Origin: Pseudomonadota bacterium
Lineage (GTDB): Bacteria > Bdellovibrionota > FAC87 > UBA2466
NCBI GenBank assembly: GCA_043718025.1
Contig: JAYSWN010000034.1
Location: 1-15,034, forward strand
Length of the DNA stretch: 15,034 bases
Direction: 5' to 3'
A program made the translations under genes and the position numbers. The notes under the pieces were generated by a model. That model saw only the letters and a program-made list of their open reading frames with translations. It searched no databases and was not told the origin of the DNA. This document shows, piece after piece, positions 2,335 through 15,033 of the stretch (positions are counted from its first letter, which is position 1; every line of letters starts with the position of its first letter).

Positions 2335-3237
2335 ATGAAGATCCCTAGTGTTTGTGTGCTGCGCCTATTGTTGTTTACTCTGCCTCTGCTCTGGCCAGCC
2401 AACGCGCTCACCGTGAGCTGCCCCGATGAGCTAAGCTTTCGTTTGGCGCTTGAAAAGTTGACTCAACGGGCTTTTGAATTTGTTTACGTCGGTGCGCCAT
2501 CCCAACGTTTCGAAGTCATTTTCACCGCGAATCCGCTAGAGAATTTTGGGTTTCTCGACCCCAGTCTGAAAAGCTACGCGGCAGTGGTGCAAACGGTACC
2601 CAATTTGCCGAGCCAGCCTACTTACGTGCTAGCTTACGCCGAACGGATGGCCCCGTTGAATTCGGCGCGGGTAGACTTTGGTTGGCTACTCAACATCGAC
2701 CACCAACTTGTCTTTTCTCAGGTTAAAAAGATTAGTGAAGAAAGGGGCAATCTTTCACTCCACCGCTCGCTTGAGTTACTGGCTTCGGAATATGGGGATC
2801 ATTCGCTTAAGACCAATAAAATGCGGATACAAGGCAGAGTGGTTTTTGAGCAGATGCGCAAACATTACCGGCTGACTTCTTTAGGGCAGTGGCGTTGGCC
2901 CCTCGCCCGCCGAAAGCGAGATATTTCTGATTTAGAATTTGCGCAGTACTTCGCGCTTGAAAAAACGCTGCCCAGAACACCGGGCATCGCTTACTCGATT
3001 TTAGAGAAACTGTCTTCGGGGCTACCGCTGGGCACCGATCTTGCCTTTCATGTGGCTCACGACTCTACCTTAGCGGCTATGCAAAGCCATCGCGATTGGC
3101 AGCGAACCGCCCTGGGTAGGCTTTCTCATCGCGCCGGGTTCGATTTGTCTGAGCGGTTTTCTGAACGTGAGAGCTTCCTCGTAATCACCACCAAGATTAG
3201 AGCTCCGCACCCTTTCTTTTTTTTGGGGCCGCTCTAA
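2335..3237 (+). CDS. Hypothetical exported protein, 300 aa, with a probable Sec signal peptide
   Basis: Long ORF filling the space between cbs and the ligase gene, with AGGAG upstream at 2320-2324. The N-terminus MKIPSVCVLRLLLFTLPLLWPANA|L fits an n/h/c signal with A-x-A cleavage. No family confidently recognised. Confidence 0.65.
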   Translation: MKIPSVCVLRLLLFTLPLLWPANALTVSCPDELSFRLALEKLTQRAFEFVYVGAPSQRFEVIFTANPLENFGFLDPSLKSYAAVVQTVPNLPSQPTYVLAYAERMAPLNSARVDFGWLLNIDHQLVFSQVKKISEERGNLSLHRSLELLASEYGDHSLKTNKMRIQGRVVFEQMRKHYRLTSLGQWRWPLARRKRDISDLEFAQYFALEKTLPRTPGIAYSILEKLSSGLPLGTDLAFHVAHDSTLAAMQSHRDWQRTALGRLSHRAGFDLSERFSERESFLVITTKIRAPHPFFFLGPL

Positions 3238-3340: not shown

Positions 3341-4777
3341 TTGGGCACCGATATAGCGAAGCATCAATTTTCCGACGCAGATTTTAAGAGTTTCCGCGAT
3401 CGGCTTCGGCAAGAAACTGCAATTTTGTCGCATTGGTTTAGGGATGATGCCTTCGTTAACGAGGGAAAGACCACTGGTCTCGAGGTTGAGTTTTGGTTGG
3501 TCGATGAAAATTTTTTACCGGCTCCCAAAAATCATGAATTTCTTGCGCTCGCTGCGCACCCACAAATTGTTGCCGAGATTGCAAAATGTAATGCCGAGTT
3601 AAATTCAGACCCCGTTCCCATGGGGGCAGATGCGCTCAATCGAAATCACTCCCAACTTGAAAAACTTTGGGCTCATATTCAAAAAACTGCGGCTGCAATG
3701 AATCTGCGGGCGATTACGGTGGGATGCCTCCCTACGCTGCGGGATACGAATCTACAGCTGGATTGGCTTTCAGATAAGGAACGTTACCGGGCCCTCAATG
3801 AACGCACTATGGCAATGCGCAAAGACCGGCCCATTCATCTGGATATTGAAGGAAAAGACCGCCTTTTGACCGTTCATCACGATATTATGCTCGAGGCGGC
3901 GGCCACCTCGTTGCAATGCCACCTTCAAGTTGAGGCTGATCAAGCCGCCCGTTATTTTAACGCTAGCCTCGTGGGCAGTCCGTTACTAGTTGCGGTGGCG
4001 GCCAACGCCCCTTTTCTGTTTGGCTGTGATCTTTGGGATGAAACGCGTATTCCCGTTTTTGAGCAGGCGGTACGCTTAATGAGTTTTCATGATACCGAGG
4101 GCGTGCCGGTAAGTCGGGTTGGCTTTGGCACCGGATACGTCAGAGAGAGTTTGCTCGAATGTTTCCTCGAAAATCTTGAGGCCTTTCCCATTTTGCTACC
4201 GATGACGAGCGATGAAAAACCGGATTCGCTCCACCACCTCCGTTTGCACAACGGCACTATTTGGCGGTGGAACCGACCGATAGTTGGCGTAAGTACTACT
4301 GGCAAACCGCATTTACGAACTGAGCAGCGAGTTCCGTCGTCGGGGCCCACCGTTACCGACATGATTGCCAATCTCGCTTTTTATCTCGGGGTCACCCACT
4401 GGCTGGCGCAGGAGAAAACGGATTTTGAAAAACAGCTTCCCTTTATCAAGCTGCGAGAGGGCTTTTACCAAGCGGCTAAGCTTGGACTTTCCGCCACCAT
4501 TCCTTGGCTGGACGGAAAGTCGTGGAATCTCCAACGCCTTTTGCTTGAAGTGGTATTGCCGCGGGCGCGCGAAGGGCTAATTGATCTTGGTATCAACGAA
4601 CTTGACGCCGATCGGTACATCAACGGAGTGATTCGGGCCCGCGTGCAATCGGGGCGCACCGGAGCCGCTTGGCAACGGGCTTACGTTTCTACTCACGGAA
4701 AAGACTTTCAAGGATTGTTGGCCAAATATTTTATATTGCAGGAGCAGGGGATTCCCGTTCATGAATGGTCGGTATGA
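3341..4777 (+). CDS. Glutamate--cysteine ligase family 2 (GCS2)-type carboxylate-amine ligase
   Basis: TTG start with GAGG at 3329-3332. Glutamine-synthetase-fold metal/ATP motifs GLEVEFWLVD, AEIAKCNAELNSDP, EAAATSLQCHLQ, AANAPFLFG, ETRIPVFEQ, LHNGTIWRWNRP and HLRTEQRVPSSGPT. Confidence 0.85.
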   Translation: MGTDIAKHQFSDADFKSFRDRLRQETAILSHWFRDDAFVNEGKTTGLEVEFWLVDENFLPAPKNHEFLALAAHPQIVAEIAKCNAELNSDPVPMGADALNRNHSQLEKLWAHIQKTAAAMNLRAITVGCLPTLRDTNLQLDWLSDKERYRALNERTMAMRKDRPIHLDIEGKDRLLTVHHDIMLEAAATSLQCHLQVEADQAARYFNASLVGSPLLVAVAANAPFLFGCDLWDETRIPVFEQAVRLMSFHDTEGVPVSRVGFGTGYVRESLLECFLENLEAFPILLPMTSDEKPDSLHHLRLHNGTIWRWNRPIVGVSTTGKPHLRTEQRVPSSGPTVTDMIANLAFYLGVTHWLAQEKTDFEKQLPFIKLREGFYQAAKLGLSATIPWLDGKSWNLQRLLLEVVLPRAREGLIDLGINELDADRYINGVIRARVQSGRTGAAWQRAYVSTHGKDFQGLLAKYFILQEQGIPVHEWSV

Positions 4778-5796
4778 GCTTGGTCTTCAAAGATAAAATT
4801 CCGCCGGGGCTATTCAATGCCAACGTTACCGATCTTCATTCAGTCTTAGGTGGCCCCTCCCTTTTCTTTATTGAAGGGGCCCGAAAACCAGCGCTGATCC
4901 TCTCTACGCTTCTTCATGGCAATGAACATACGGGTTTTCTCGCTTTAAAGTCGTGGTTAAGACCTTACGCGCTGGGAAGTAAACCAATCCCGCGTTCGCT
5001 TTGGGTTTTTATTGGCAATACGGAAGCCGCCCAACTAAACCTACGCCTACTTCCCGGTCGGGTTGATTATAATCGCCTCTGGCGCGGTAGTTTGGCCCCC
5101 GAAGCCAAAATTGCCGCTGAAGTGATGGCGCGGGTTACTAAAGATCCGTTATTTGCGGCGGTAGATATTCATAACAACAGCGGAAATAATCCCCATTACG
5201 CGTGCGTCGCAAAATGGGAAAGAAGCCACATTGAACTGGGCGGGCTGTTCGGGAGAACTCTGGTTCACGCAACCCAGCCGGCCGAAACCTTTACCCACGC
5301 TTTTGCCGATTTTTCTCCCTCGGTTACTCTGGAGTGCGGGCTCTCGGGCAATGAGCGTTCCACCCAACACACCATCGACTATCTTGAATCGGTTTTGCAC
5401 TTATCCCACTTTTCGCCGCACGCGGTTTCTCAAGGTGATATCGATGGCTACGAGACTGTGGCCCGCGTTCGGGTGAAGCCCGGGGTGGCCTTCGAATTTG
5501 CAGATCTAGACAGTTCGGTAATGGATAAGAGTTACCTCGTGCTTCGATCTGATCTTGAGAGACTAAACTTTTCACCGCTTCCTGCGGGAACCCTGTTTGG
5601 CCGCTATACGGGCGATGAAACTCCGATTGAGGTTTTAAATGGTAAGGGAGAAGATCCCAAACTTTTGAGTTTCGACAAGGGCCGGATTTTCACTACGGAG
5701 ACGATCACTCCGGCCATGTTAACTACTAACGTGCAGGCTGTGCGCGATGACTGTCTGGGCTATTTGATGAACGGGAAGAAGTTACCTGACCGGTAA
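4774..5796 (+). CDS. M14-like Zn carboxypeptidase / succinylglutamate desuccinylase-aspartoacylase family hydrolase
   Basis: STLLHGNE (HxxE Zn ligands), DYNR (substrate Arg), DIHNN (third Zn ligand) and TLECG (catalytic Glu). Start placed at ATG 4774 because of the ATGA overlap with the ligase stop (the ORF track gives 4765). Confidence 0.85.
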   Translation: MSLVFKDKIPPGLFNANVTDLHSVLGGPSLFFIEGARKPALILSTLLHGNEHTGFLALKSWLRPYALGSKPIPRSLWVFIGNTEAAQLNLRLLPGRVDYNRLWRGSLAPEAKIAAEVMARVTKDPLFAAVDIHNNSGNNPHYACVAKWERSHIELGGLFGRTLVHATQPAETFTHAFADFSPSVTLECGLSGNERSTQHTIDYLESVLHLSHFSPHAVSQGDIDGYETVARVRVKPGVAFEFADLDSSVMDKSYLVLRSDLERLNFSPLPAGTLFGRYTGDETPIEVLNGKGEDPKLLSFDKGRIFTTETITPAMLTTNVQAVRDDCLGYLMNGKKLPDR

Positions 5797-5818: not shown

Positions 5819-7378
5819 CTACTTTTGATTCTCGGAATGGAGAACTTTAAACCGAGTGAGATAAAGGTCGTTCGGTTGGTTGGACAGGGGGCGGCGGGGA
5901 TTATAAGCCAAGAAATAGGCGTCGTTGATAATGGCTCTACGATCAATGATTTCTACCGGTCCCTTGGGAACGTAATAGGCTTTTGAGCTGAGATAGAGAT
6001 AAGAATTTCCGGTTTTTAAGGGCCTTTCCCCCATGACGGGAAGCCGGGTGCGGTTTTGGAATGAGGCTAGGAAACTGGGCCTTTCTAAAATGATTCCGTC
6101 GATGCCACTTTCCGATCCGATTAACAGTGAAACGTCCTCGACACTTTGCCGGCGAAAGCTCAAACCCGCCAATCCAATAATAACCGCGGCGGTGAGAAAG
6201 TGGATTGACCAGCGACCAAGCCAGAGTTCAATTCTGGTGTCGCTGAGGGCCAGGCCAATGGTCGTGAAGACGAGGGGGGAGAGGAAAAGAATATGCCGTA
6301 AGGGGCTCAGGCCCAAGTAGCCAGTAATCATGGCGAGCCCCACGGCGAGGAAAGTGCAGGTTGTAAAAAGCACGAATAGATTTAACTCAACGGAAGGTGA
6401 GGGTTTTGAAACTCTTAGTAGCACCCAACGTACGGCTAGGCTGCAGGCCACTATTCCCAGTACGAATTGAGTCCACTCGGCAAACACCCCGCGGTTGAAA
6501 AGGCTAAAATAATTAAGACAAATGTAGAACAACGCTGGGAACAGCTCTTTGAAAGTTTCGACCGTTCCCCGATTTCCCTGATCTATCTGGACTAAAAGAA
6601 GGGAACAAATGGCAATGGCCGCGATCGCCACAGCCTGTGATTTGAGCAACCTGGTCAATACTGAAAGCGGTCGTTTATTTTTTTTGCCGTCTCTCCAGGC
6701 GATGGCCGCCACGAAGCCCAACCAGTAAAAGGGAATGAGGTAGTTTAAGTAGGTCAGAATGGCGGTGGCTACGGAAATACGTTTTTCCAATTGCGGGTGG
6801 CGCAGATTTTGACCGAGCCACCAAATCCAAAACATCGAGGTAGAGAAATTCCAAACGGTGTTGCCCAGATGGAAACCGTAGGAGTAATGGCTGATGGAGA
6901 AGAGTAGCCAAAGTGCGGCGCCGGTAGCGGAGAAAGGCGTTGCCCCCAAGTTGCGAATCGTGAAAAAGAGCAACAGCACAGTGAGGTGAAACAGAAGCAA
7001 GGTCACCAAGGTTGCTCTCGACATAAAGTCAAAGTACGGCAGCGTCGCTCCACCCAATAGTCCATACACTAAGCCGGACCCCATCGAGTAAGTACTTCCC
7101 AACGGGAGAGCCCACATGCTCCGCAAGGGACCAGGTAAGTGGAGATTCTCCAACCTCATAACGAGTGACTCCCTGAAGAGGGACAGCCAGGGGCGCCGCC
7201 CGTCTTTTTTGGGGTAGGCCCACGACTCTCGCAGGTACCATAGCTGCGGACGGGGGAAATCGGTTAGATGGCCGTGCACGAAGCTTGAGTCGATCTCTTG
7301 GAAATGACGGTTTCGAAATCCGACGTGAAAAATAAAACTTAGCGAAAGGGCCAAGAACAAGATTCGCGATGGAGTCAT
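5819..7378 (-). CDS. Polytopic membrane protein, probable GT-C fold glycosyltransferase (PMT/ArnT-like architecture)
   Basis: TM1 is followed by a loop with an acidic motif (FQEIDS), then about 10 hydrophobic segments, an RHILFLSP motif near the last TMs and a soluble C-terminal domain. Start placed at ATG 7378 because of the ATGA overlap with the upstream stop at 7375-7377 (the ORF track gives GTG 7390). Confidence 0.6.
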   Translation of the reverse strand: MTPSRILFLALSLSFIFHVGFRNRHFQEIDSSFVHGHLTDFPRPQLWYLRESWAYPKKDGRRPWLSLFRESLVMRLENLHLPGPLRSMWALPLGSTYSMGSGLVYGLLGGATLPYFDFMSRATLVTLLLFHLTVLLLFFTIRNLGATPFSATGAALWLLFSISHYSYGFHLGNTVWNFSTSMFWIWWLGQNLRHPQLEKRISVATAILTYLNYLIPFYWLGFVAAIAWRDGKKNKRPLSVLTRLLKSQAVAIAAIAICSLLLVQIDQGNRGTVETFKELFPALFYICLNYFSLFNRGVFAEWTQFVLGIVACSLAVRWVLLRVSKPSPSVELNLFVLFTTCTFLAVGLAMITGYLGLSPLRHILFLSPLVFTTIGLALSDTRIELWLGRWSIHFLTAAVIIGLAGLSFRRQSVEDVSLLIGSESGIDGIILERPSFLASFQNRTRLPVMGERPLKTGNSYLYLSSKAYYVPKGPVEIIDRRAIINDAYFLAYNPRRPLSNQPNDLYLTRFKVLHSENQK

Positions 7379-9042
7379 AGGCCCACGCACGTGAGAACCA
7401 CGGGGCGATTTTCATTGGTGCGAATTCGCAATGTTTGGTTGGATATATTTTGGAGACGCAACTTGGCGGTTATCTCCTCAACGCTGGAGCGGTGAAAGCC
7501 AATAAAATTGCCCGACGTCTCACCGCCGTACGAAGTCCAACTTGCGCTGGCCAAGCCTTGGGCATTCACCGCGAACAAGCGAAGATCGTTTGCCTGGCGT
7601 AAGGGGGAAACCCACACCAATACCGTGTTGATTCGGGCCTCGGTAGGAAGCCATTCCAACGCCTGACCGGGCGCAAGCTCCGTTTCGCTAGCGTTAAGCA
7701 AATCGGCTGCGCTTGGGTGCGTACCTAACCGACTGTTGTGTTGGATCCAATATCTCCCTTCGTACGGATTCACCCCAATGCAAAAAGAGCTCGGAAGTGG
7801 TTCTCCACGCCGCTCAAAGGCGCGAACAAATTCAGTCCATTGGCTAAAGTGTAACTCTGGAAAACCGGGGGATTGGGGCGTTCTCAAGAAGAAAGGCCCG
7901 CTATAGAAAAGCACCAGAGACACCCCCAACACCGAGGCACTCCGTGCCCAGCGCGAAACCGATTGCGCGGCATCGGCCAGCAGGTAAATAAGTAACGTGA
8001 GCAGCGCGATATTGGCCAAGATTGCCCAACGTCCATCTTTAACGGTGTAGCCAACCACCGCGAGAATCATCATTCGGGTGGTCCACGTTACACCGAGTGC
8101 GATCACAAAAAGAAAGAAGAGTTTCCCCTGATCGGCCCGCCGCCCGGTAAGATGACGAATCAGTCCCCCTAAAAAAAGAACCACTATCGCTAACCCCAAG
8201 CCTTGCCAAAGAGACAAACCGTGCGTTCTCCACGCCGAAAGAGTTCCGGCAAACCCTGTCTCCAACCACAAACGTCCAGACAACACGAACAGAAACGCAT
8301 CTATGGACGATAAAAAACTTCGGCTCGCGAAAAAAAGGAGCGACTTCGGAGGGCCTGCTTTCAACACGCCTAGGTTCGCCGCTTGAATCGCTACCTGCAA
8401 AAGCCCACCTGAAAGCCCCATGATTAGCCAACCGAAAGGGCGTTGTTCGCGGTATTCGTTCCACAGGAGAATTAGAAAAATCGGAAAGTAGGCAATGAAG
8501 GCCGACTTAGAAAGAAACAGTACGGCCACGCCAACCCCAACCACCCAACGCGTTGTGCCGTCGGAAATACCTCTTTCCCCAATTCGCATCGCCGTAAATA
8601 GGAGCGGCAGCGCGGCAAGGTAAATAAAGTTGATGTAGTAGTGAAGATCGAGATCGGCATTCATCCCCACCACCAGCGCCAAAAAAAGACGCCAAGTGAG
8701 GGGGAATGTCGGGGACTCAAAAAACGGTAAACAAATCGAGGCGCAGAATAAGGACCCCAAAAGTAGCGCCGTAACGCTTTGAATTAATGGCGCCAGCGCA
8801 TCAAGAGTAGAAAAACTGTGGATGCCAAAGGCTACGATTCTTTGAAAGAGCGGTAGGTAATTCATGTCCAGAGTGAACAGGGCGGTAAAAAAAGGAGAGA
8901 AGCGCGCATGGTAAAAAAAATTGAGTCCGCCCTCGCAAAAGAACTCATTTCCCGAAAGGGGGAGGAAAACCAGCGCTTGATAGCCGAACAAAAACAGAAA
9001 GCAAAGAATCGCCGGCAGGGAGTGACTCAATTTATTGTTCAT
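7375..9042 (-). CDS. Polytopic membrane protein, probable GT-C fold glycosyltransferase with a C-terminal extracytoplasmic domain
   Basis: TM1 is followed by EFFCEGGLNFF...DMNYLPLFQRIVA, which resembles the 'aEDG..f....yaGYl...pRl.a' first-loop pattern of GT-C-like proteins. About 11 TM segments, a DGRW motif before the late TMs and a ~170 aa soluble tail. Confidence 0.6.
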   Translation of the reverse strand: MNNKLSHSLPAILCFLFLFGYQALVFLPLSGNEFFCEGGLNFFYHARFSPFFTALFTLDMNYLPLFQRIVAFGIHSFSTLDALAPLIQSVTALLLGSLFCASICLPFFESPTFPLTWRLFLALVVGMNADLDLHYYINFIYLAALPLLFTAMRIGERGISDGTTRWVVGVGVAVLFLSKSAFIAYFPIFLILLWNEYREQRPFGWLIMGLSGGLLQVAIQAANLGVLKAGPPKSLLFFASRSFLSSIDAFLFVLSGRLWLETGFAGTLSAWRTHGLSLWQGLGLAIVVLFLGGLIRHLTGRRADQGKLFFLFVIALGVTWTTRMMILAVVGYTVKDGRWAILANIALLTLLIYLLADAAQSVSRWARSASVLGVSLVLFYSGPFFLRTPQSPGFPELHFSQWTEFVRAFERRGEPLPSSFCIGVNPYEGRYWIQHNSRLGTHPSAADLLNASETELAPGQALEWLPTEARINTVLVWVSPLRQANDLRLFAVNAQGLASASWTSYGGETSGNFIGFHRSSVEEITAKLRLQNISNQTLRIRTNENRPVVLTCVGL

Positions 9043-9130
9043 AGTGAAGTTAACCTATGACATCGGGCTTTTTTTCGAGGTTCCGCCAAGCCAGGCTGAC
9101 GATATCAAGCTCAATTGGGCGAGCTGCGGT

Positions 9131-9139
9131 ATTCTAACA
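9131..9139 (-). promoter_or_regulatory. Putative extended -10 promoter (TG-T-TAGAAT) for the two-gene GT-C-like operon
   Basis: Reverse complement of attctaaca (9131-9139) is TGTTAGAAT, about 90 bp upstream of the ATG at 9042. No good -35. Confidence 0.45.
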
Positions 9140-9200
9140 AAATTTCGTGAAATAGCCGACCGGTTAAACTTCAGCGATAACCACCGCACGCGGCCAATTG

Positions 9201-9216
9201 GTTCGTTTAAATCGAA
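9201..9216. promoter_or_regulatory. Putative LysR-type operator, copy 1 (GTTCG-TTTAAAT-CGAA), upstream of terC
   Basis: TTCG-N7-CGAA dyad containing T-N11-A. Exact reverse complement of 10344-10359. Confidence 0.7.
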
Positions 9217-9238
9217 GTATGAACGATGATTTATCCAA

Positions 9239-9267
9239 TTTCCAAGACCTTCCTACCCACGTAGATT
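9239..9267 (+). promoter_or_regulatory. Putative sigma70-type promoter of terC (-35 TTTCCA, 17 bp spacer, -10 TAGATT)
   Basis: Hexamers at 9239-9244 and 9262-9267. They place the dyad centre (9209) at about -65, the usual LysR recognition-site position. Confidence 0.5.
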
Positions 9268-9327
9268 GTAACTCGTTGTTGCATCCACAACTTGAAGCGA
9301 TACTTCGTTTTTGAAGGAATGGCAGTT

Positions 9328-10353
9328 ATGAGCGTCTCTCTTTTTCCTTTTGCCGAGTACTGGTCGTTCTATCTACTCTTTACTGGATTCGTCGCCTTGC
9401 TTTTGGTCTTAGATCTTGGGGTGTTTCACCGTAAGGCGCACGAGGTGTCATTTAAGGAGGCTGGAATCTGGAGTGTGGTCTGGATTTCCTTAGCGCTGGT
9501 TTTTAACTACCTTCTCTACCAATACTCATTGTGGAAGTTTCCGTTGGATGTGCGTCTGAACGCCATTCCCGGATTTGACGCAGATGGCTCTGCTAAACAG
9601 GTTGCGCTGGAATTTCTTACCGGTTTCGTGATCGAGAAGTCACTGGCCATCGACAATCTTTTTATTTTTGTGGTCGTATTTTCATATTTCGCCATACCGT
9701 CTATTTATCAACACCGAATTCTTTTTTACGGCATTTTGGGTGCCCTCCTGTTTAGGGCTATTTTCATCGCCGTTGGCTCAGTCTTGATGCAGTACCACTG
9801 GGTGATTGTGGTCTTCGGAATTTTTCTGATCCTTACCGGAATCAAGCTTCTGCTCACACCCGATAAGGCCCCGGATATTGAAAAGAACCCTCTAATCCGT
9901 TTCACCAAACGGTTTCTTCCCATTACCACCACTATGGAGGGGCAAAAGTTTTTTGTGGTGAAAAACGGTGTGCGTTACGGAACCCCACTTTTGTTGGCGC
10001 TTATCTTTATTGAATTTACGGATATCGTTTTTGCCATTGATTCGATTCCGGCCATCTACGCCATTACCGCTGAGCCCTTCATCGTATTCACCTCAAATAT
10101 TTTTGCGCTCTTAGGCATGCGTTCGCTCTATTTCCTACTGGCCGGGATAATGCACCTCTTCCGTTTTCTAAAATATGGTCTCGGGCTGGTGCTGGTTTTT
10201 GTTGGACTCAAAATGGCCTGGTTGAACGAACTCTTCGGCGGTAAATTCCCCATTGGGTGGTCGCTAGGAATCATTTTTGGAATTATTGGGGGTTCGATTT
10301 TACTGTCGCTAGTTTGGAAAAAGGAGAGCTCAGTCGCGGATAGTTCGATTTAA
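9328..10353 (+). CDS. terC: TerC/Alx family integral membrane protein
   Basis: Motifs LDLGVFHRKAHEVS, FLTGFVIEKSLAIDNLFIF, QHRILFYGILGAL.FR, IEFTDIVFAIDSIPAI, FTSNIFALLGMRSLYF and FRFLKYGL. Start placed at ATG 9328 with AAGGA at 9314-9318 (the ORF track extends to TTG 9292). Confidence 0.93.
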   Translation: MSVSLFPFAEYWSFYLLFTGFVALLLVLDLGVFHRKAHEVSFKEAGIWSVVWISLALVFNYLLYQYSLWKFPLDVRLNAIPGFDADGSAKQVALEFLTGFVIEKSLAIDNLFIFVVVFSYFAIPSIYQHRILFYGILGALLFRAIFIAVGSVLMQYHWVIVVFGIFLILTGIKLLLTPDKAPDIEKNPLIRFTKRFLPITTTMEGQKFFVVKNGVRYGTPLLLALIFIEFTDIVFAIDSIPAIYAITAEPFIVFTSNIFALLGMRSLYFLLAGIMHLFRFLKYGLGLVLVFVGLKMAWLNELFGGKFPIGWSLGIIFGIIGGSILLSLVWKKESSVADSSI

Positions 10354-10359
10354 ACGAAC
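10343..10359. promoter_or_regulatory. Putative LysR-type operator, copy 2 (GTTCG-ATTTAAA-CGAAC), upstream of dabB and overlapping the terC stop codon
   Basis: Perfect 5-bp-arm dyad with a 7-bp AT spacer. 16/16 identity to copy 1 on the opposite strand. Confidence 0.7.
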
Positions 10360-10379
10360 GGTTGGTTGATTTTTTTCTA

Positions 10380-10409
10380 TTGTTAATGCGTGGCCAAATA
10401 ATGGACAAT
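10380..10409 (+). promoter_or_regulatory. Putative promoter of dabBA (-35 TTGTTA, 18 bp spacer, -10 GACAAT)
   Basis: The -10-like hexamer begins 53 bp after the dyad centre, the same distance as at terC. An alternative pair is TTTCTA (10374-10379) / 17 bp / AATAAT (10397-10402). Confidence 0.4.
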
Positions 10410-10486
10410 TCCAGCAACTTAAATTTGTGGTTGCGACGGGAATCTCACGCGAAAACACAACTTGGTCAGGTCAAGGAGAGACAGAA

Positions 10487-12049
10487 ATGTTTGATGGGTC
10501 GGTATTTCATAGTCTATTGCTGGGGTTGCCCCTTTTTAGTTTGGGGCTGGGATGGGTAATTTCTCGCGTGCGTCGTGACGCTACCACTGAAAAGGCGCTC
10601 GTGAAGCTTAGGGTTTTTGAGTTTCTGATTGCCGTTGCCATTCTGGTGGAAACCTTCACAAATCGGGCTCTGGAAGTTACTTTCTTCAGGGCCAGCTTGT
10701 TTGATCTGGTAAATGTAGACTTTGGCTTAAGGGGCGACGAGCTTTCCTCCATTGTGCTCGCGATGATTGCATTGCTTTCACTTTGCATCTTTCGCTATTC
10801 GGTGAGGTACCTGGACGGGGACGGGCGCAGGTTCGATTTCTATCGAAATTTTCAGCTTACGGTATTTGCGGTTACGTTCTTAACCCTATCAAATAACCTG
10901 CTGATGTTTTTTGCCGCCTGGCTCGCCACCAGTTACGGGTTGCACCAACTATTGCTTCATTTTAGCGAGCGACCACAAGCGGTACTTGCCGCGCGAAAAA
11001 AATGGTGGGTTAGCCGAATCGGCGACGCTTGTCTGCTCCTAGGCATTGTGCTCACCTATAAGCATTTTGGTACTTTTAATTTTGGTGAACTTTTTGCCAT
11101 TGCGAAAAATGAAGAGGCGATGGCCGCCGCCACGAACGGCGGCGGTTTTTACATTATCGGGCTGTTATTTGTGATTGGCGCCATGACTAAGTCAGCTCAG
11201 TTTCCGTTTCATTTCTGGCTACCGGAGACTATGGAAACTCCCACACCAGTTTCTGCCCTAATGCACGCTGGAGTTATCAATGCGGGTGGTTTTCTAATCA
11301 TTCGTTTGTCACCGATTCTAGTACACGCGACTTTCGCACACGCATTGCTCACCGTGGTAGGGGGAGTTACGGCGGTTTTCGCGGCGCTGGCGATGATGAC
11401 TCAAACCGACGTAAAAAGAACATTGGCCTACTCAACTATTAGTCAGCTTGGCTTCATGATGATTCAGTGTGGGTTGGGTTTATACACGCTGGCGCTATTT
11501 CACATTATCGCGCACGGCTTTTACAAAGCGCACGCTTTTCTCTCCACCGGAACGATTCTCGAGGAGAGCAAGGCCCCAAAACGCAATCTTTCAAACCTTG
11601 GGCTTACTATCTCCTACCTCCTCGCCACCGGACTGGTGGTCTACGGGCTAAATTTGAAGACTGACTCGGCGTTTCTTCCTCCTTCGCTCTGGATTTACTT
11701 TGGAATTCTTGCGCTGGCGTTGACCCAAGTGATTGGTTCGCGAACCGAACTGATTTCGGCTCTGGTTAAGAACTCAGTCGGCAGTTTTATTTATCTCACG
11801 GCGGGGTTCAGTATCTACGTGGCCTTTGAGTACTTTGGGGGCGGCTACCTGGCCCAAGTGATGCCCCAAAGGCTGGATATAGACGGCGTTTGGATTGCGT
11901 CCGTCTTGACCGTGTTTGTGCTCTTTTCGCTGGGAATTTATTTCGCAAAGCGCATGCAGGATCTTAACGAGCCAAAGGGAAAACAGCTGTGGATGTTTTT
12001 TTGGAACGGTGGATACATTCCCCAAATTTCAACCCGGCTTTTTCGATAA
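10487..12049 (+). CDS. dabB: DabB/MpsA-type NuoL/ND5-like cation-translocating subunit of an inorganic carbon transporter
   Basis: YSVRYLDGD, SRIGD, KSAQFPFHFWLPETMETPTPVSALMHAGVINAGGF, KRTLAYSTISQLGFMMIQCGLG and HIIAHGFYKAHAFL. Lies directly upstream of a DUF2309 gene with no other nuo/mrp subunits. Start placed at ATG 10487 with AAGGAG at 10473-10478. Confidence 0.92.
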   Translation: MFDGSVFHSLLLGLPLFSLGLGWVISRVRRDATTEKALVKLRVFEFLIAVAILVETFTNRALEVTFFRASLFDLVNVDFGLRGDELSSIVLAMIALLSLCIFRYSVRYLDGDGRRFDFYRNFQLTVFAVTFLTLSNNLLMFFAAWLATSYGLHQLLLHFSERPQAVLAARKKWWVSRIGDACLLLGIVLTYKHFGTFNFGELFAIAKNEEAMAAATNGGGFYIIGLLFVIGAMTKSAQFPFHFWLPETMETPTPVSALMHAGVINAGGFLIIRLSPILVHATFAHALLTVVGGVTAVFAALAMMTQTDVKRTLAYSTISQLGFMMIQCGLGLYTLALFHIIAHGFYKAHAFLSTGTILEESKAPKRNLSNLGLTISYLLATGLVVYGLNLKTDSAFLPPSLWIYFGILALALTQVIGSRTELISALVKNSVGSFIYLTAGFSIYVAFEYFGGGYLAQVMPQRLDIDGVWIASVLTVFVLFSLGIYFAKRMQDLNEPKGKQLWMFFWNGGYIPQISTRLFR

Positions 12050-12079
12050 CCCTTTTCAGAGAAACAGGAGATACTCGTC

Positions 12080-14551
12080 ATGTTTGACACCTCAACTTTT
12101 AGTCAAAATAAACCGCTTGAATCCGTCCTGGGTACAGAAACAATGAACGAGAATAAAATGACGAAAGACACCGCCGCGGCGGTAGCAGAGGCGGTTCGAG
12201 TCGTGGCTCCGGCGTGGCCACTTCAGTCAATCGTGGCGGTGAACCCGTTTTGGAATTTGCGGCAAAAGGGTTTTTACCAGGTGCTGTCGCAGTTGAGTAA
12301 TCTCTTTGGGCAAAGTCTCTTTTTGCCCCTAGAGGTCTTCGTGAAAAAACATGAGGACGGGTTGATCTCTGACGCCGATATTCTGCATTCAATGGAAGGC
12401 TTGCGACGGACCGGGGTGAAGCTCGACGGTGATCTTCCCCGTTTTCTTCGCGAGAGCCAAGAGTCCACGGTGAAAGGGCTGAGCTTTGAAGTCTACTCCG
12501 ACTTTATGTCCCGTCTGGAAAACTCTGAGCTTTCAGCCGATGTGATTAATCAGGTTGGCAAGTATTGCGCCTCGTACTTTGACCAAGGGCAAGCCTCCTT
12601 TGGGCTAAGGGTGAAGACGAAGCGTCTTTATCAAGAATGGCTTGATTTGATTCAAATTGATCATTCCATGGACCACTTAGGGTACCGGCGCGACGCAAAA
12701 TTTTTGGCAAATTTACCATCTGATCCCATCAAGGCGATTGAACTGTGCGCGAACAAACTTGGGCTTGTTTCGGATATAGCGCTTGAGCTTTACCTTATGA
12801 AGGTCTGTCATCGCACGATGGGTTGGTGTTCTCACGTGCATCAACATCTTTGGCAGGATAGCCTCGGACTTAGTCATAACTCGCGTGGCACTAAAATTGA
12901 GGATGTTTTGGCCATTTTCATGGTTTACGAAGTCTGGGCCGGGGAGGTTGATTCAGAGCACGATTTGTCTTGGTCAAACTCGTTGAAACAGCAGGTAATG
13001 ACCTTCTCCCAACGAAATTCGGATCTAGATCACAACTACCTGCTGTTAAGCGTATGGCAGCGGGCCAATGAATGGAGCTATCAAAAGAGGGTGGCCAAAA
13101 AGCTGGTAGCGCCGCGCCCAATGAGTAAGGTTTCGAGCGAAAAAAATATCGCCCAAATGATTTTTTGCATCGATGTGCGCTCAGAGGTGATTCGCAGAAG
13201 CATTGAAGAACAGGGTTCTGCAATCACCACCCATGGCTTTGCCGGATTTTTCGGCGTGTCACTGGACTGTACCCACGAACAAAAGGAAGCAAGCTCTTAC
13301 CGCTGTCCAGTACTGCTCACGCCCAAATTGGCGGTAATCGAAGAGGCCAGTCTGCAGAGCCGTAAAACCATGCAGGGTAGTCGCTCTTTTTCTAAGTTTC
13401 TAACGGGAATGAAACAGGGGCTAGCCTCTTCTTTTGCGTATGTTGAGTTCTTTGGTGTTTTGGCGGGGATCAATATTCTGAAGCGCTCTCTCAACCTCGG
13501 ACCGAGCACCGACAAGCTATTTAGAAAGAAATTTGACGATACCAGCGATCTCAATCTGGCGTTGGACCTTAATAGCCAGGTCGCTACCGCTTCTTTTGCG
13601 CTTTCCCACATGGGTATTCGCGAATTTGCACCGGCGGTGTTTGTGTGTGGCCACGGTAGCGTGACTACGAACAACGCCTTTGCCTCTTCGCTCGATTGTG
13701 GGGCCTGCGGTGGTCACTCCGGAGAACTAAACGCTCGAATCCTTTGTCGCATTTTGAATAATAAGCAGGTTCGTGCGGAACTAAAGACGTTGGGAAAATT
13801 TGTGATTCCCGACGCAACCTACTTCGTTCCCGCTCTGCATGAAACCGTTACGGATAAAATCTTGGTTTTAGAAGAAGGAAAATTACCGGCCGCGGCTCAA
13901 GAGGTAGTTAGCAAAATAAAGGGTTCCCTATCAAAAGCGGCAGATGCGGCGCAACGAGAGCGCTCGTTAATTACCGATGTCCCAGCCCTCTCTGGCGAAA
14001 ATCGCGTCAGCAATTGGTCAGAGGTTCGGCCGGAATGGGCCCTGGTCAGAAATGGGTGCTTTATTGTCGCCCCTCGGTCTCGTACCCGCGGTACCAATTT
14101 TGACGGCCGCTCCTTCCTCCACGACTACGATTTTATGATCGACGAAGGAATGAAGACCCTCGAGCTTATCATGACCGCGCCGATGGTAGTTACTAACTGG
14201 ATCAATATGCAGTACTACGCCTCGTCGGTAGCGATGCACACTTTTGGTTCGGGCAATAAGGTTCTCCACAATATCGTGGGTCGAATGGGAGTGTCGGAAG
14301 GCAACGGGGGCGACCTAAGGGTTGGCCTGCCCTTTCAGTCGGTGCATAGCGGAGAAAAACTGGTGCATGAGCCATTGCGACTGAGCGTATTCATCGAAGC
14401 GCCCCAGAGCGACGTAGAAAAGATTATTGCTAGCCACGCCGTAGTTCAGCAATTGGTCGACAACCAATGGCTGCACCTATTCTTGGTGGACCGTGCGAAA
14501 AACGCCGTAACCTACCGCAACTCGGGCGGAAAATACGAAGCTTTGGAATGA
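12080..14551 (+). CDS. dabA: DabA/MpsB (DUF2309, UPF0753) beta-carbonic-anhydrase-like subunit of an inorganic carbon transporter
   Basis: APAWPLQSIVAVNPF, FCIDVRSE (Zn Cys and Asp), GFAGFFG, GHGS (Zn His), LDCGACGG (Zn Cys), HETVTD, WSEVRPEWAL, GRSFLHDYD, WINMQYYAS, FGSGNKVLHN, GDLRVGLPFQSV and HEPLRL. RBS CAGGAG at 12065-12070. Confidence 0.95.
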   Translation: MFDTSTFSQNKPLESVLGTETMNENKMTKDTAAAVAEAVRVVAPAWPLQSIVAVNPFWNLRQKGFYQVLSQLSNLFGQSLFLPLEVFVKKHEDGLISDADILHSMEGLRRTGVKLDGDLPRFLRESQESTVKGLSFEVYSDFMSRLENSELSADVINQVGKYCASYFDQGQASFGLRVKTKRLYQEWLDLIQIDHSMDHLGYRRDAKFLANLPSDPIKAIELCANKLGLVSDIALELYLMKVCHRTMGWCSHVHQHLWQDSLGLSHNSRGTKIEDVLAIFMVYEVWAGEVDSEHDLSWSNSLKQQVMTFSQRNSDLDHNYLLLSVWQRANEWSYQKRVAKKLVAPRPMSKVSSEKNIAQMIFCIDVRSEVIRRSIEEQGSAITTHGFAGFFGVSLDCTHEQKEASSYRCPVLLTPKLAVIEEASLQSRKTMQGSRSFSKFLTGMKQGLASSFAYVEFFGVLAGINILKRSLNLGPSTDKLFRKKFDDTSDLNLALDLNSQVATASFALSHMGIREFAPAVFVCGHGSVTTNNAFASSLDCGACGGHSGELNARILCRILNNKQVRAELKTLGKFVIPDATYFVPALHETVTDKILVLEEGKLPAAAQEVVSKIKGSLSKAADAAQRERSLITDVPALSGENRVSNWSEVRPEWALVRNGCFIVAPRSRTRGTNFDGRSFLHDYDFMIDEGMKTLELIMTAPMVVTNWINMQYYASSVAMHTFGSGNKVLHNIVGRMGVSEGNGGDLRVGLPFQSVHSGEKLVHEPLRLSVFIEAPQSDVEKIIASHAVVQQLVDNQWLHLFLVDRAKNAVTYRNSGGKYEALE

Positions 14552-14560
14552 GTGGTGAGT

Positions 14561-14574
14561 GAGGCGTATGCCTC
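14561..14574. terminator. Weak hairpin (GAGGC-GTAT-GCCTC) between the convergent dabA and LysR genes
   Basis: 5-bp stem with a 4-nt loop in the 35-bp gap between the stops. No U-tract on either side. Confidence 0.2.
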
Positions 14575-14586
14575 CAATCGGTACCA

Positions 14587-15033
14587 CTATTCGAGCTCAA
14601 ATTCCTTCATGAGACGCGCTGCAACGGGGTTTGCTATCTTTCGCGCTCCGGAAACAAGCCAGTACTCTTCTCTTACGGATTGAAGGATACCGATTTTTAC
14701 CAGTTTCTTTTCGCTTACCAACTGTTGGGCGGCGAACTCAGGCAGTGGCAGAAGTCCCATGGCATCGAGGCCCATTAACTTTTGGATACTGGTGTCTTGA
14801 GTTTCAGCAACCAACTTAACCTTGATCAGGTTCACGGTGAAGAAGTGGTCGAGGTCCTGGCGCAACTTACTGTGAGCGGTTGGAAAAATGAATGGTTGAC
14901 CCTCGAGCGACTTTGGAAAATTCTTTTTTAACGATGCAAATTTTGGCGCACCGAAAACCGCCACCGGTACTTTCGCGATTGAACGGGAATAAGTTCGCCC
15001 TTGCTCTGAATTCATCGGCGGGTAGTTCGAGAC
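14587..15033 (-). CDS. LysR-family transcriptional regulator, NhaR-like, C-terminal effector domain (5' end outside the window)
   Basis: The frame stays open to the window edge (VSNYPPMNSEQG...). FPKSLEGQPFIFPT.HSKLR..LDHFF, VAETQDTSIQKLMG, IGILQSVREEYWLVSGARKIANPVA parallel the NhaR pattern FPxCLE..LLIPG..S.L..KL..WF, GEFDDAALMKAFG, EEY.AI...R.I.HPAV. Confidence 0.85.
   Translation of the reverse strand, partial: VSNYPPMNSEQGRTYSRSIAKVPVAVFGAPKFASLKKNFPKSLEGQPFIFPTAHSKLRQDLDHFFTVNLIKVKLVAETQDTSIQKLMGLDAMGLLPLPEFAAQQLVSEKKLVKIGILQSVREEYWLVSGARKIANPVAARLMKEFELE

Follow-up and report, generated by a model that had tools for sequence, protein, structure and literature searches.

NhaR-type two-part operators predicted in front of terC/alx and dabBA beside an NhaR-related LysR regulator gene in a Bdellovibrionota genome

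Genes and features of the locus

The stretch of DNA analyzed here (the window) comprises 15,034 nucleotides and is the whole of one contig (JAYSWN010000034.1 of assembly GCA_043718025.1, called C162 below) from a bacterium placed by GTDB in the Bdellovibrionota. In line with this placement, one locus of the same phylum is 100% identical to a Bacteriovoracaceae locus. Its right-hand part carries terC/alx, followed by dabB and dabA in the same direction and, convergent to these, the 3' half of a gene for an NhaR-related LysR regulator, which is cut by the contig end (Table 1). The sites in front of terC and dabB are predicted to be two-part operators with the geometry of the E. coli nhaA operator. 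Through them the adjacent regulator would activate separate promoters of terC/alx and dabBA, likely at alkaline pH or under Na+ load, a reading which, taken as a whole, we favor with moderate confidence.

Table 1. Operators, promoter elements and genes in the right-hand part of the window.
Feature	Position	Strand	Basis and remarks
Operator 1, first half-site (TCG-N7-CGA dyad; predicted recognition site)	9203..9215	+	Score 23.7, fifth in the genome; second in the window with the unseeded foreign motif
Operator 1, second half-site (predicted activation site over the -35 region)	9234..9246	+	31 bp downstream; 13+18+13 layout as in E. coli nhaA
-10-like hexamer TAGATT, center +53	9262..9267	+	Predicted start about 9274, inferred
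terC/alx, TerC/Alx-family membrane protein, 341 aa, likely Mn2+ exporter	9328..10353	+	TIGR03718, 385.8 bits (cut-off 246.4)
Operator 2, first half-site	10345..10357	+	Score 29.5; first in the window with the unseeded motif; overlaps the terC stop codon
Operator 2, second half-site	10376..10388	+	Motif layout and homologous sites
-10-like hexamer GACAAT, center +53	10404..10409	+	Predicted start about 10416, inferred
dabB, NuoL/MrpA-like membrane subunit of a DAB2-type pump, 520 aa	10487..12049	+	PF00361 and PF00662; best NCBIfam match NF006029 below cut-off; directly before dabA
dabA, zinc carbonic-anhydrase-like subunit, 823 aa	12080..14551	+	PF10070, 722 bits; PDB 9rd0 (DabA2), E 2.8e-121
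3' half (residues ~147-294) of the NhaR-related LysR regulator	14587..15033	-	NhaR is the only NCBIfam match; 5' half at the start of contig C154

The TerC protein resembles E. coli Alx (45% identity) and, besides its TIGR03718 match above the cut-off, keeps the five essential acidic transport residues (E103, D109, E229, D232 and D238), which places it in the Alx subfamily. The pump is of the DAB2 type, with PF10070 adjoining PF00361 and all four zinc ligands C, D, H and C present in DabA (motifs C363/D365, H525 and C540, aligned to 9rd0). It shares these motifs and the two-gene dabB-dabA arrangement with DAB2 of H. neapolitanus (PDB 9rd0, 9rd8, 9rd9). Close DabA homologs were found in 24 of 401 genomes of the host phylum.

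Two-part operators in front of terC and dabB

The original prediction rested on two 16-mers (9201-9216 and 10344-10359), each a TTCG-N7-CGAA dyad, one before terC and the other before dabB. The domain searches upheld these gene calls, and the 16-mers are indeed exact reverse complements, matching at 19 of 20 bases when extended. The 16-mer is unique in the 4.14-Mb genome at no or one mismatch, with three more places at two mismatches. Their identity alone is moderate evidence and suggestive only, because an exact inverted 16-mer pair, seen in 1 of 200 shuffled windows, is found in 20 of 177 unshuffled 15-kb segments of the same genome, and because the bare pattern is not enriched. There are two matches to TTCG-N7-CGAA in the window against 0.55 expected (21 of 200 shuffles reach two), and the genome scan that had been proposed gave 181, within the range of 139 to 249 for other spacer lengths. 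The bare dyad was therefore dropped as the defining motif and a 44-bp model used in its place. The operators had also been called twin and identical, which did not hold up, since the first half-sites differ in all four other loci with two sites (L153, L155, L157 and L222).

Both sites are established as real by their spacing and by a second half-site, 31 bp further downstream (start to start). Both dyads are the first halves of 44-bp LysR operators (13+18+13 bp), with the second half on the same side at both promoters; both operators point in the + direction, their functional polarity being direct and not inverted. The dyads had been taken for complete operators; the layout bears out their operator character, but each is a first half only, and the second half-site had been missed. 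The -10-like hexamers lie 53 bp from the dyad centers, as had been reported, and the arrangement is that of LysR operators, a T-N11-A dyad near -65 (a position that depends on predicted transcription starts) with a second site over the -35 region.

The same 13+18+13 site is present in the leader of E. coli nhaA, 103 bp before the start codon, where it is the top match in 300 bp and is followed by TAAAAT at center +53. The published NhaR consensus TCgaAAAAatCtA (PMC6307784) agrees with the operator model and with the nhaA site. Among 140 distinct homologous sites, a -10-like hexamer stands at center +53 in 57% and at +54 in 13%, with at most 7% at the other offsets tested. These results support the prediction that both window sites are NhaR-type LysR operators with nhaA-like geometry.

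The cleanest test, being free of circularity with the window sites, used an unseeded Gibbs motif derived from 30 foreign LysR-dabB intergenic regions (best of six runs, information content 29.8, against 12.6-12.9 for shuffled regions; the top score was reached in one of the six runs). With this motif the window sites ranked first and second in 15 kb (17.4 and 12.3, the best non-overlapping other site scoring -0.7), and the E. coli nhaA site ranked first in 2.8 kb. In 26 of the 30 divergent loci the motif lies no more than 15 bp from the start codon of the NhaR-related gene.

With a second matrix, built from 40 sites of relatives, five sites in the genome score at least 20, and none do so in 10 column permutations. 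The highest is the regulator's own divergent promoter; the others precede dabB and terC or lie on contigs C217 (one) and C154 (one more). Four further sites were inspected, and the hexamer was found at the same offset in each. The 44-bp operator is found upstream of the LysR gene, terC and dabB. The description of the locus as a self-contained module could not be maintained, since only two of the five sites are in the window and the regulator continues on C154 with more operators.

Two operators on C154 stand back to back (L188:7174-7264), one of them before a gene for a DUF533/TerB-like protein. The second operator (score 26.7, with a -10 hexamer) is directed into the 3' end of tolC and has no gene after it; it may be an antisense promoter or be left over from a gene since lost. 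Operator matches with -10-like hexamers also precede genes for a protein of about 170 aa (G000:C217:8367, -) and for a 230-aa protein with a twin-arginine-like start (G000:C209:27984, -).

A consensus promoter scan detected no + strand sigma-70 promoter at either window operator, which says little because weak -35 regions are expected at activated promoters. A terminator scan found none downstream of terC and none in the dabA-nhaR interval, so that read-through from terC into dabBA would be possible.

The regulator and its clades

Compared with the protein of one relative, the two halves of the regulator correspond to residues 1-145 (81%) and 147-294 (72%), and the tree places them in one group. 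They are likely one gene that lacks about one codon at the contig break. C162 and C154 share no exact overlap; past the right end of the window, contigs of two runs (possibly of the source DNA) continue for 8,387 and 875 bases. The convergent gene had been predicted to be NhaR-like; NhaR is indeed its only family match, but below the family cut-off and with only the 3' half lying in the window.

Five residues of the effector domain (D102, K106, E128, E223 and D226) are common to the window's clade and E. coli NhaR, while a second clade, dedicated to DAB, mostly has A/T, R and S at the first three of these positions. They are presumably pocket residues, the closest available structure, 5y2v, being only distantly related to the clade (E 2e-13). 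The comparison suggests that the window's regulator likely senses what NhaR senses.

Divergent from the regulator, C154 carries genes for a baeRF3 protein, a zinc-ribbon protein, an ion channel and an ABC/HlyD/TolC trio (L188:466-7071). The baeRF3 protein matches the structures of Balon (8RD8/8RDV/8RDW, E 4e-5), and its operon is preceded by the top-scoring operator of the genome. The export trio also recurs together with dabBA in relatives.

The DAB-dedicated sister clade was drawn from the best 80 of 584 DabA loci in GTDB, in 30 of which an NhaR-like LysR gene is divergent from dabB. NhaR was the best NCBIfam match in 19 of 20 such regulators scanned, all below the cut-off. A quick tree separates the clade (support 98) from E. 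coli NhaR as well as from the window's group; the clade includes members from Pseudomonadota, Verrucomicrobiota, Acidobacteriota, Bdellovibrionota and others. Among cultured hosts, the arrangement was found on Phaeobacter and Pseudoalteromonas plasmids. A further 19 DAB loci of the host phylum comprised eight with the divergent clade (seven with the operator; two repeat earlier loci), one with the window's clade nearby and ten with neither.

Several observations on these DAB loci concern neighboring features. A DUF6671 gene recurs beside dabA in 15 of the best 80 of 584 loci (e.g. L037:4523-5395). Tandem A+T-rich repeats centered on CATG are found upstream of dabB in six loci without an NhaR-type operator (L309-L312, L315, L316), which suggests another regulator. 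In Tamilnaduibacter (L083:8323) and Marinobacter (L089:8281) dabB has the operator, and no NhaR-like gene was found within 10 kb; these operators are likely controlled in trans.

Conservation of the regulon

In 60 related genomes 37 places with NhaR-like genes were detected, and 35 of these loci were examined. Their recurrent neighbors were carbonic anhydrase (13), HPF (12), TerC (10), bestrophin (10), ABC (8), DabA (6) and baeRF (4). The same operator was found in relatives before terC, dabB, carbonic anhydrase, HPF and the Balon-like gene. The dabB operator is present in all six relatives' loci that join dabB to the window's regulator clade, and also in L222. The terC operator was found in 9 of 14 close orthologs (the window included) and in none of 14 distant paralogs (two of the 30 loci were too short). 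In its 44-bp form the motif has therefore been kept before both terC and dabB, as the original prediction required.

The synteny survey proposed with that prediction showed that the combination of terC, dab and an nhaR-like gene recurs in six other loci (G022, G025, G018, L046, L222 and L284), with the terC-dabB-dabA order of the window in L222 and dabB at the contig end in L284. In the nearest relative (G015) terC, nhaR and baeRF are arranged as in the window, without dab. It is therefore likely that in this lineage dabBA came in with its own operator between terC and nhaR.

A metagenome set (best 80 of 553 loci, 36 of them at least 8 kb long, some redundant) gave these neighbors: TerC 47, HPF 25, HtpX 20, baeRF 14, carbonic anhydrase 9 and DAB 2. 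The operator precedes terC in 36 of the 47 loci, against 14 of 600 random windows. TerC is the commonest member of the regulon and DAB is a minority member. The paired operators are a real feature and part of this wider regulon, and do not depend on the identity of the two 16-mers. A 344-aa protein without a Pfam match (L170:11394-12425 and relatives) was also seen near the regulator or DAB in four relatives' and three metagenome loci.

Proposed mechanism, signal and alternative explanations

In the proposed mechanism, a tetramer of the regulator would occupy both half-sites, the dyad near -65 and the second one across the -35 region, and recruit RNA polymerase to a promoter that lacks a good -35, activating terC/alx and dabBA separately. 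TerC/Alx would export the Mn2+ that accumulates at high pH, under a protein regulator in place of the E. coli riboswitch. CO2 hydration by DabAB, driven by the proton gradient, would provide carboxylases with bicarbonate and release protons into the cytoplasm. Relatives have regulators of this clade, with the operator before genes for carbonic anhydrase (often with bestrophin), HtpX, HPF and the Balon-like factor. That the neighboring regulator acts on both predicted operators, and so on terC/alx and dabBA, we propose with high confidence. Given this wiring, an alkaline or Na+ signal appears fairly probable, by analogy: high pH and cations induce nhaAR in E. coli, alkaline conditions are those in which Alx exports Mn2+, and bicarbonate and protons are the products when DAB or carbonic anhydrase hydrates CO2.

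Several results weigh against this interpretation. The cut-off of the NhaR equivalog NF008284 (219 bits) is reached neither by the two halves of the regulator (91 and 52) nor by full-length members of the clade (121 and 146), the E. coli control scoring 603. In the quick IQ-TREE tree, where E. coli NhaR is a long branch, it falls into a five-row clade (support 100) distinct from the window's group (support 85-91). No nhaA-like gene was among the recurrent neighbors, and no NhaA among the top operator matches of the genome, nhaA itself not having been searched for in either case; a putative antiporter (PF07399) is near the regulator in three loci. E. coli osmC and pgaA, both NhaR targets, score weakly with the operator matrix (3.3 and 7.7), and the matrices other than the unseeded Gibbs motif go back to sites whose first detection used those of the window, and are partly circular. 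No site lies directly upstream of terC in 5 of the 14 close orthologs, and no dabB operator was found in L046 and L284, which have all three gene types. As to the signal, Alx has been reported not to take part in pH homeostasis (PMC10197570). DAB2 has been reported to be proton-coupled, Na+-independent and active regardless of pH, which weakens the link to Na+ that had been drawn through the pump.

The strongest alternative, which we consider rather unlikely, keeps the wiring and takes the signal to be low CO2 or bicarbonate, or a metabolite that reports it, the regulon serving to supply inorganic carbon. Carbonic anhydrase or DAB occurs in 19 of the 35 relatives' loci and both in none, bestrophin accompanies the regulator as listed above, a SulP fragment was found in one locus, and the sister clade faces dabB in many DabA loci. 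In H. neapolitanus, two knockouts, classed here as LysR only, need high CO2 (10.1101/476713). The mutual exclusion is weak, however, as about two overlaps are expected, the kin are not independent and most DAB-bearing genomes have carbonic anhydrase elsewhere. Moreover, carbonic anhydrase and DAB are outnumbered by TerC, HPF and HtpX in the metagenome loci, the genome's own operon of SulP-like and beta-carbonic anhydrase genes (G000:C115:1259-3483) has no operator, and the effector residues of the window's clade are those of E. coli NhaR and not those of the DAB-dedicated clade.

It is improbable that the same wiring serves a general membrane and energy stress regulon (membrane protease, ribosome hibernation, export) with DAB as a recent passenger. 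HtpX, HPF, the Balon-like protein and the ABC/HlyD/TolC trio are frequent members with operators, dabBA was apparently inserted in this lineage, and TerC is nearby in none of the 19 further DAB loci of the phylum. Against this, dabB keeps a strong operator of its own in the relatives and in L222, and DAB and carbonic anhydrase have repeatedly been recruited to NhaR-related regulators.

Highly improbable is the explanation that another LysR protein reads the two LysR operators (there are four other LysR-like matches in the genome), or that one of the operators has lost its function. The motif tracks NhaR-related genes across phyla, close to their start codons, and the top match of the genome is the regulator's own divergent promoter. 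At a score of at least 10, the motif was found in 17 of 27 DAB loci with an NhaR-like neighbor against 3 of 33 without (in this sorting the divergent loci L066, L092, L101 and L117 counted as 'other' and L046 as 'divergent', the later set having 30 divergent loci), and in none of 10 loci of a second set without such a neighbor. The inverted 20-bp repeats bracket terC almost exactly, but their reading as recombination sites of an invertible or mobile segment was rejected, as the second half-site and -10 hexamer lie on the same side of each repeat, the repeat identity is not kept in relatives, no strand-switch joint was seen in contigs of four runs (in which rare variants are lost; two of the runs may be of the source DNA) and there is no recombinase among 11 scanned proteins of the window.

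A wider view could be considered, which we put forward as tentative and doubtful as a whole. NhaR-related LysR proteins would be sensors of alkalinity and CO2/bicarbonate in several phyla, with one operator, and the E. coli antiporter regulon would be one narrow case. The window's clade would switch on DAB or carbonic anhydrase with bestrophin, as interchangeable sources of bicarbonate, together with riboswitch-free Mn2+ export and ribosome hibernation factors, and the sister clade, with its T/R/S effector pocket, would be a dedicated DAB regulator that senses inorganic carbon directly.

Other genes of the window

Outside the locus described above, the window encodes a cystathionine beta-synthase (771-2120) and an overlapping pair of a GCS2-like ligase and an AstE/AspA-like peptidase (3341-5796). 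Four proteins (5819-9042, -; 228-725, -; 2335-3237, +), two of them large and membrane-rich, had no Pfam or NCBIfam match.

Comparison with known systems

In E. coli, alx is controlled by a riboswitch and has no NhaR-type operator (best score -1.8), whereas window terC has such an operator and a predicted leader of about 54 nt. This is presumably too short for a yybP-ykoY riboswitch. Two riboswitch core motifs are present in the E. coli alx leader and absent from 9043-9330. Rfam scans gave no riboswitch at window terC, but at both thresholds they also missed the known control at E. coli alx (L042:780-1080). An Rfam terC RNA (RF03067) was detected before a distant terC paralog without the operator (L218:1956-2013). 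E. coli Alx is described as a Mn2+ exporter of the TerC family, controlled by the yybP-ykoY riboswitch and active at alkaline pH (PMC10197570). The comparison suggests that an NhaR relative exerts here the alkaline control of TerC/Alx that in E. coli falls to a riboswitch.

The window's DAB2-type pump differs from that of H. neapolitanus in following terC, in its NhaR-type operator and in its host, in whose genome (92% complete) no RuBisCO match was found. The accessible parts of 10.1101/476713 and 10.64898/2026.03.13.711513 describe no operator or regulator for H. neapolitanus DAB2, and the former raises the questions of how DAB pumps are regulated and why heterotrophs keep them. To these the present analysis contributes a precise predicted operator, predicted transcription starts and two candidate regulator clades with different effector residues.

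The targets of E. coli NhaR are given as nhaAR, osmC and pgaABCD (PMC6307784, PMC10157491), and the regulon of Shewanella NhaR is limited to nhaA-SO1337-nhaR (PMC3223726 supplement). None of the titles and abstract openings surveyed, which do not extend to RegPrecise and most subscription papers, connects DAB, TerC or carbonic anhydrase with NhaR-type regulators or with the operator, and no paper pairing NhaR with DUF2309 was found. This agrees with the earlier statement that no terC-dabBA-nhaR unit was known, as far as the literature covered extends.

The likeness to NhaR and nhaA P1 of E. coli lies in the 13+18+13 layout, the TCG-N7-CGA first half, the -10 hexamer at center +53, the best family match of the regulator and the shared effector-domain residues. 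The window's regulator differs in falling below the family cut-off, in belonging to a separate clade and in its predicted targets, which are terC/alx, dabBA, carbonic anhydrase, HPF and the Balon-like gene and not nhaA. CbbR, CmpR and CcmR/NdhR are LysR regulators of carbon-concentrating mechanisms and resemble the present system in the LysR control of inorganic-carbon uptake genes. CbbR-like proteins form a clade of their own without the conserved effector-domain residues and are a distinct family. All parts of the locus belong to known families, and it is the scope of a known regulator that is widened here rather than a new kind of system that is added.

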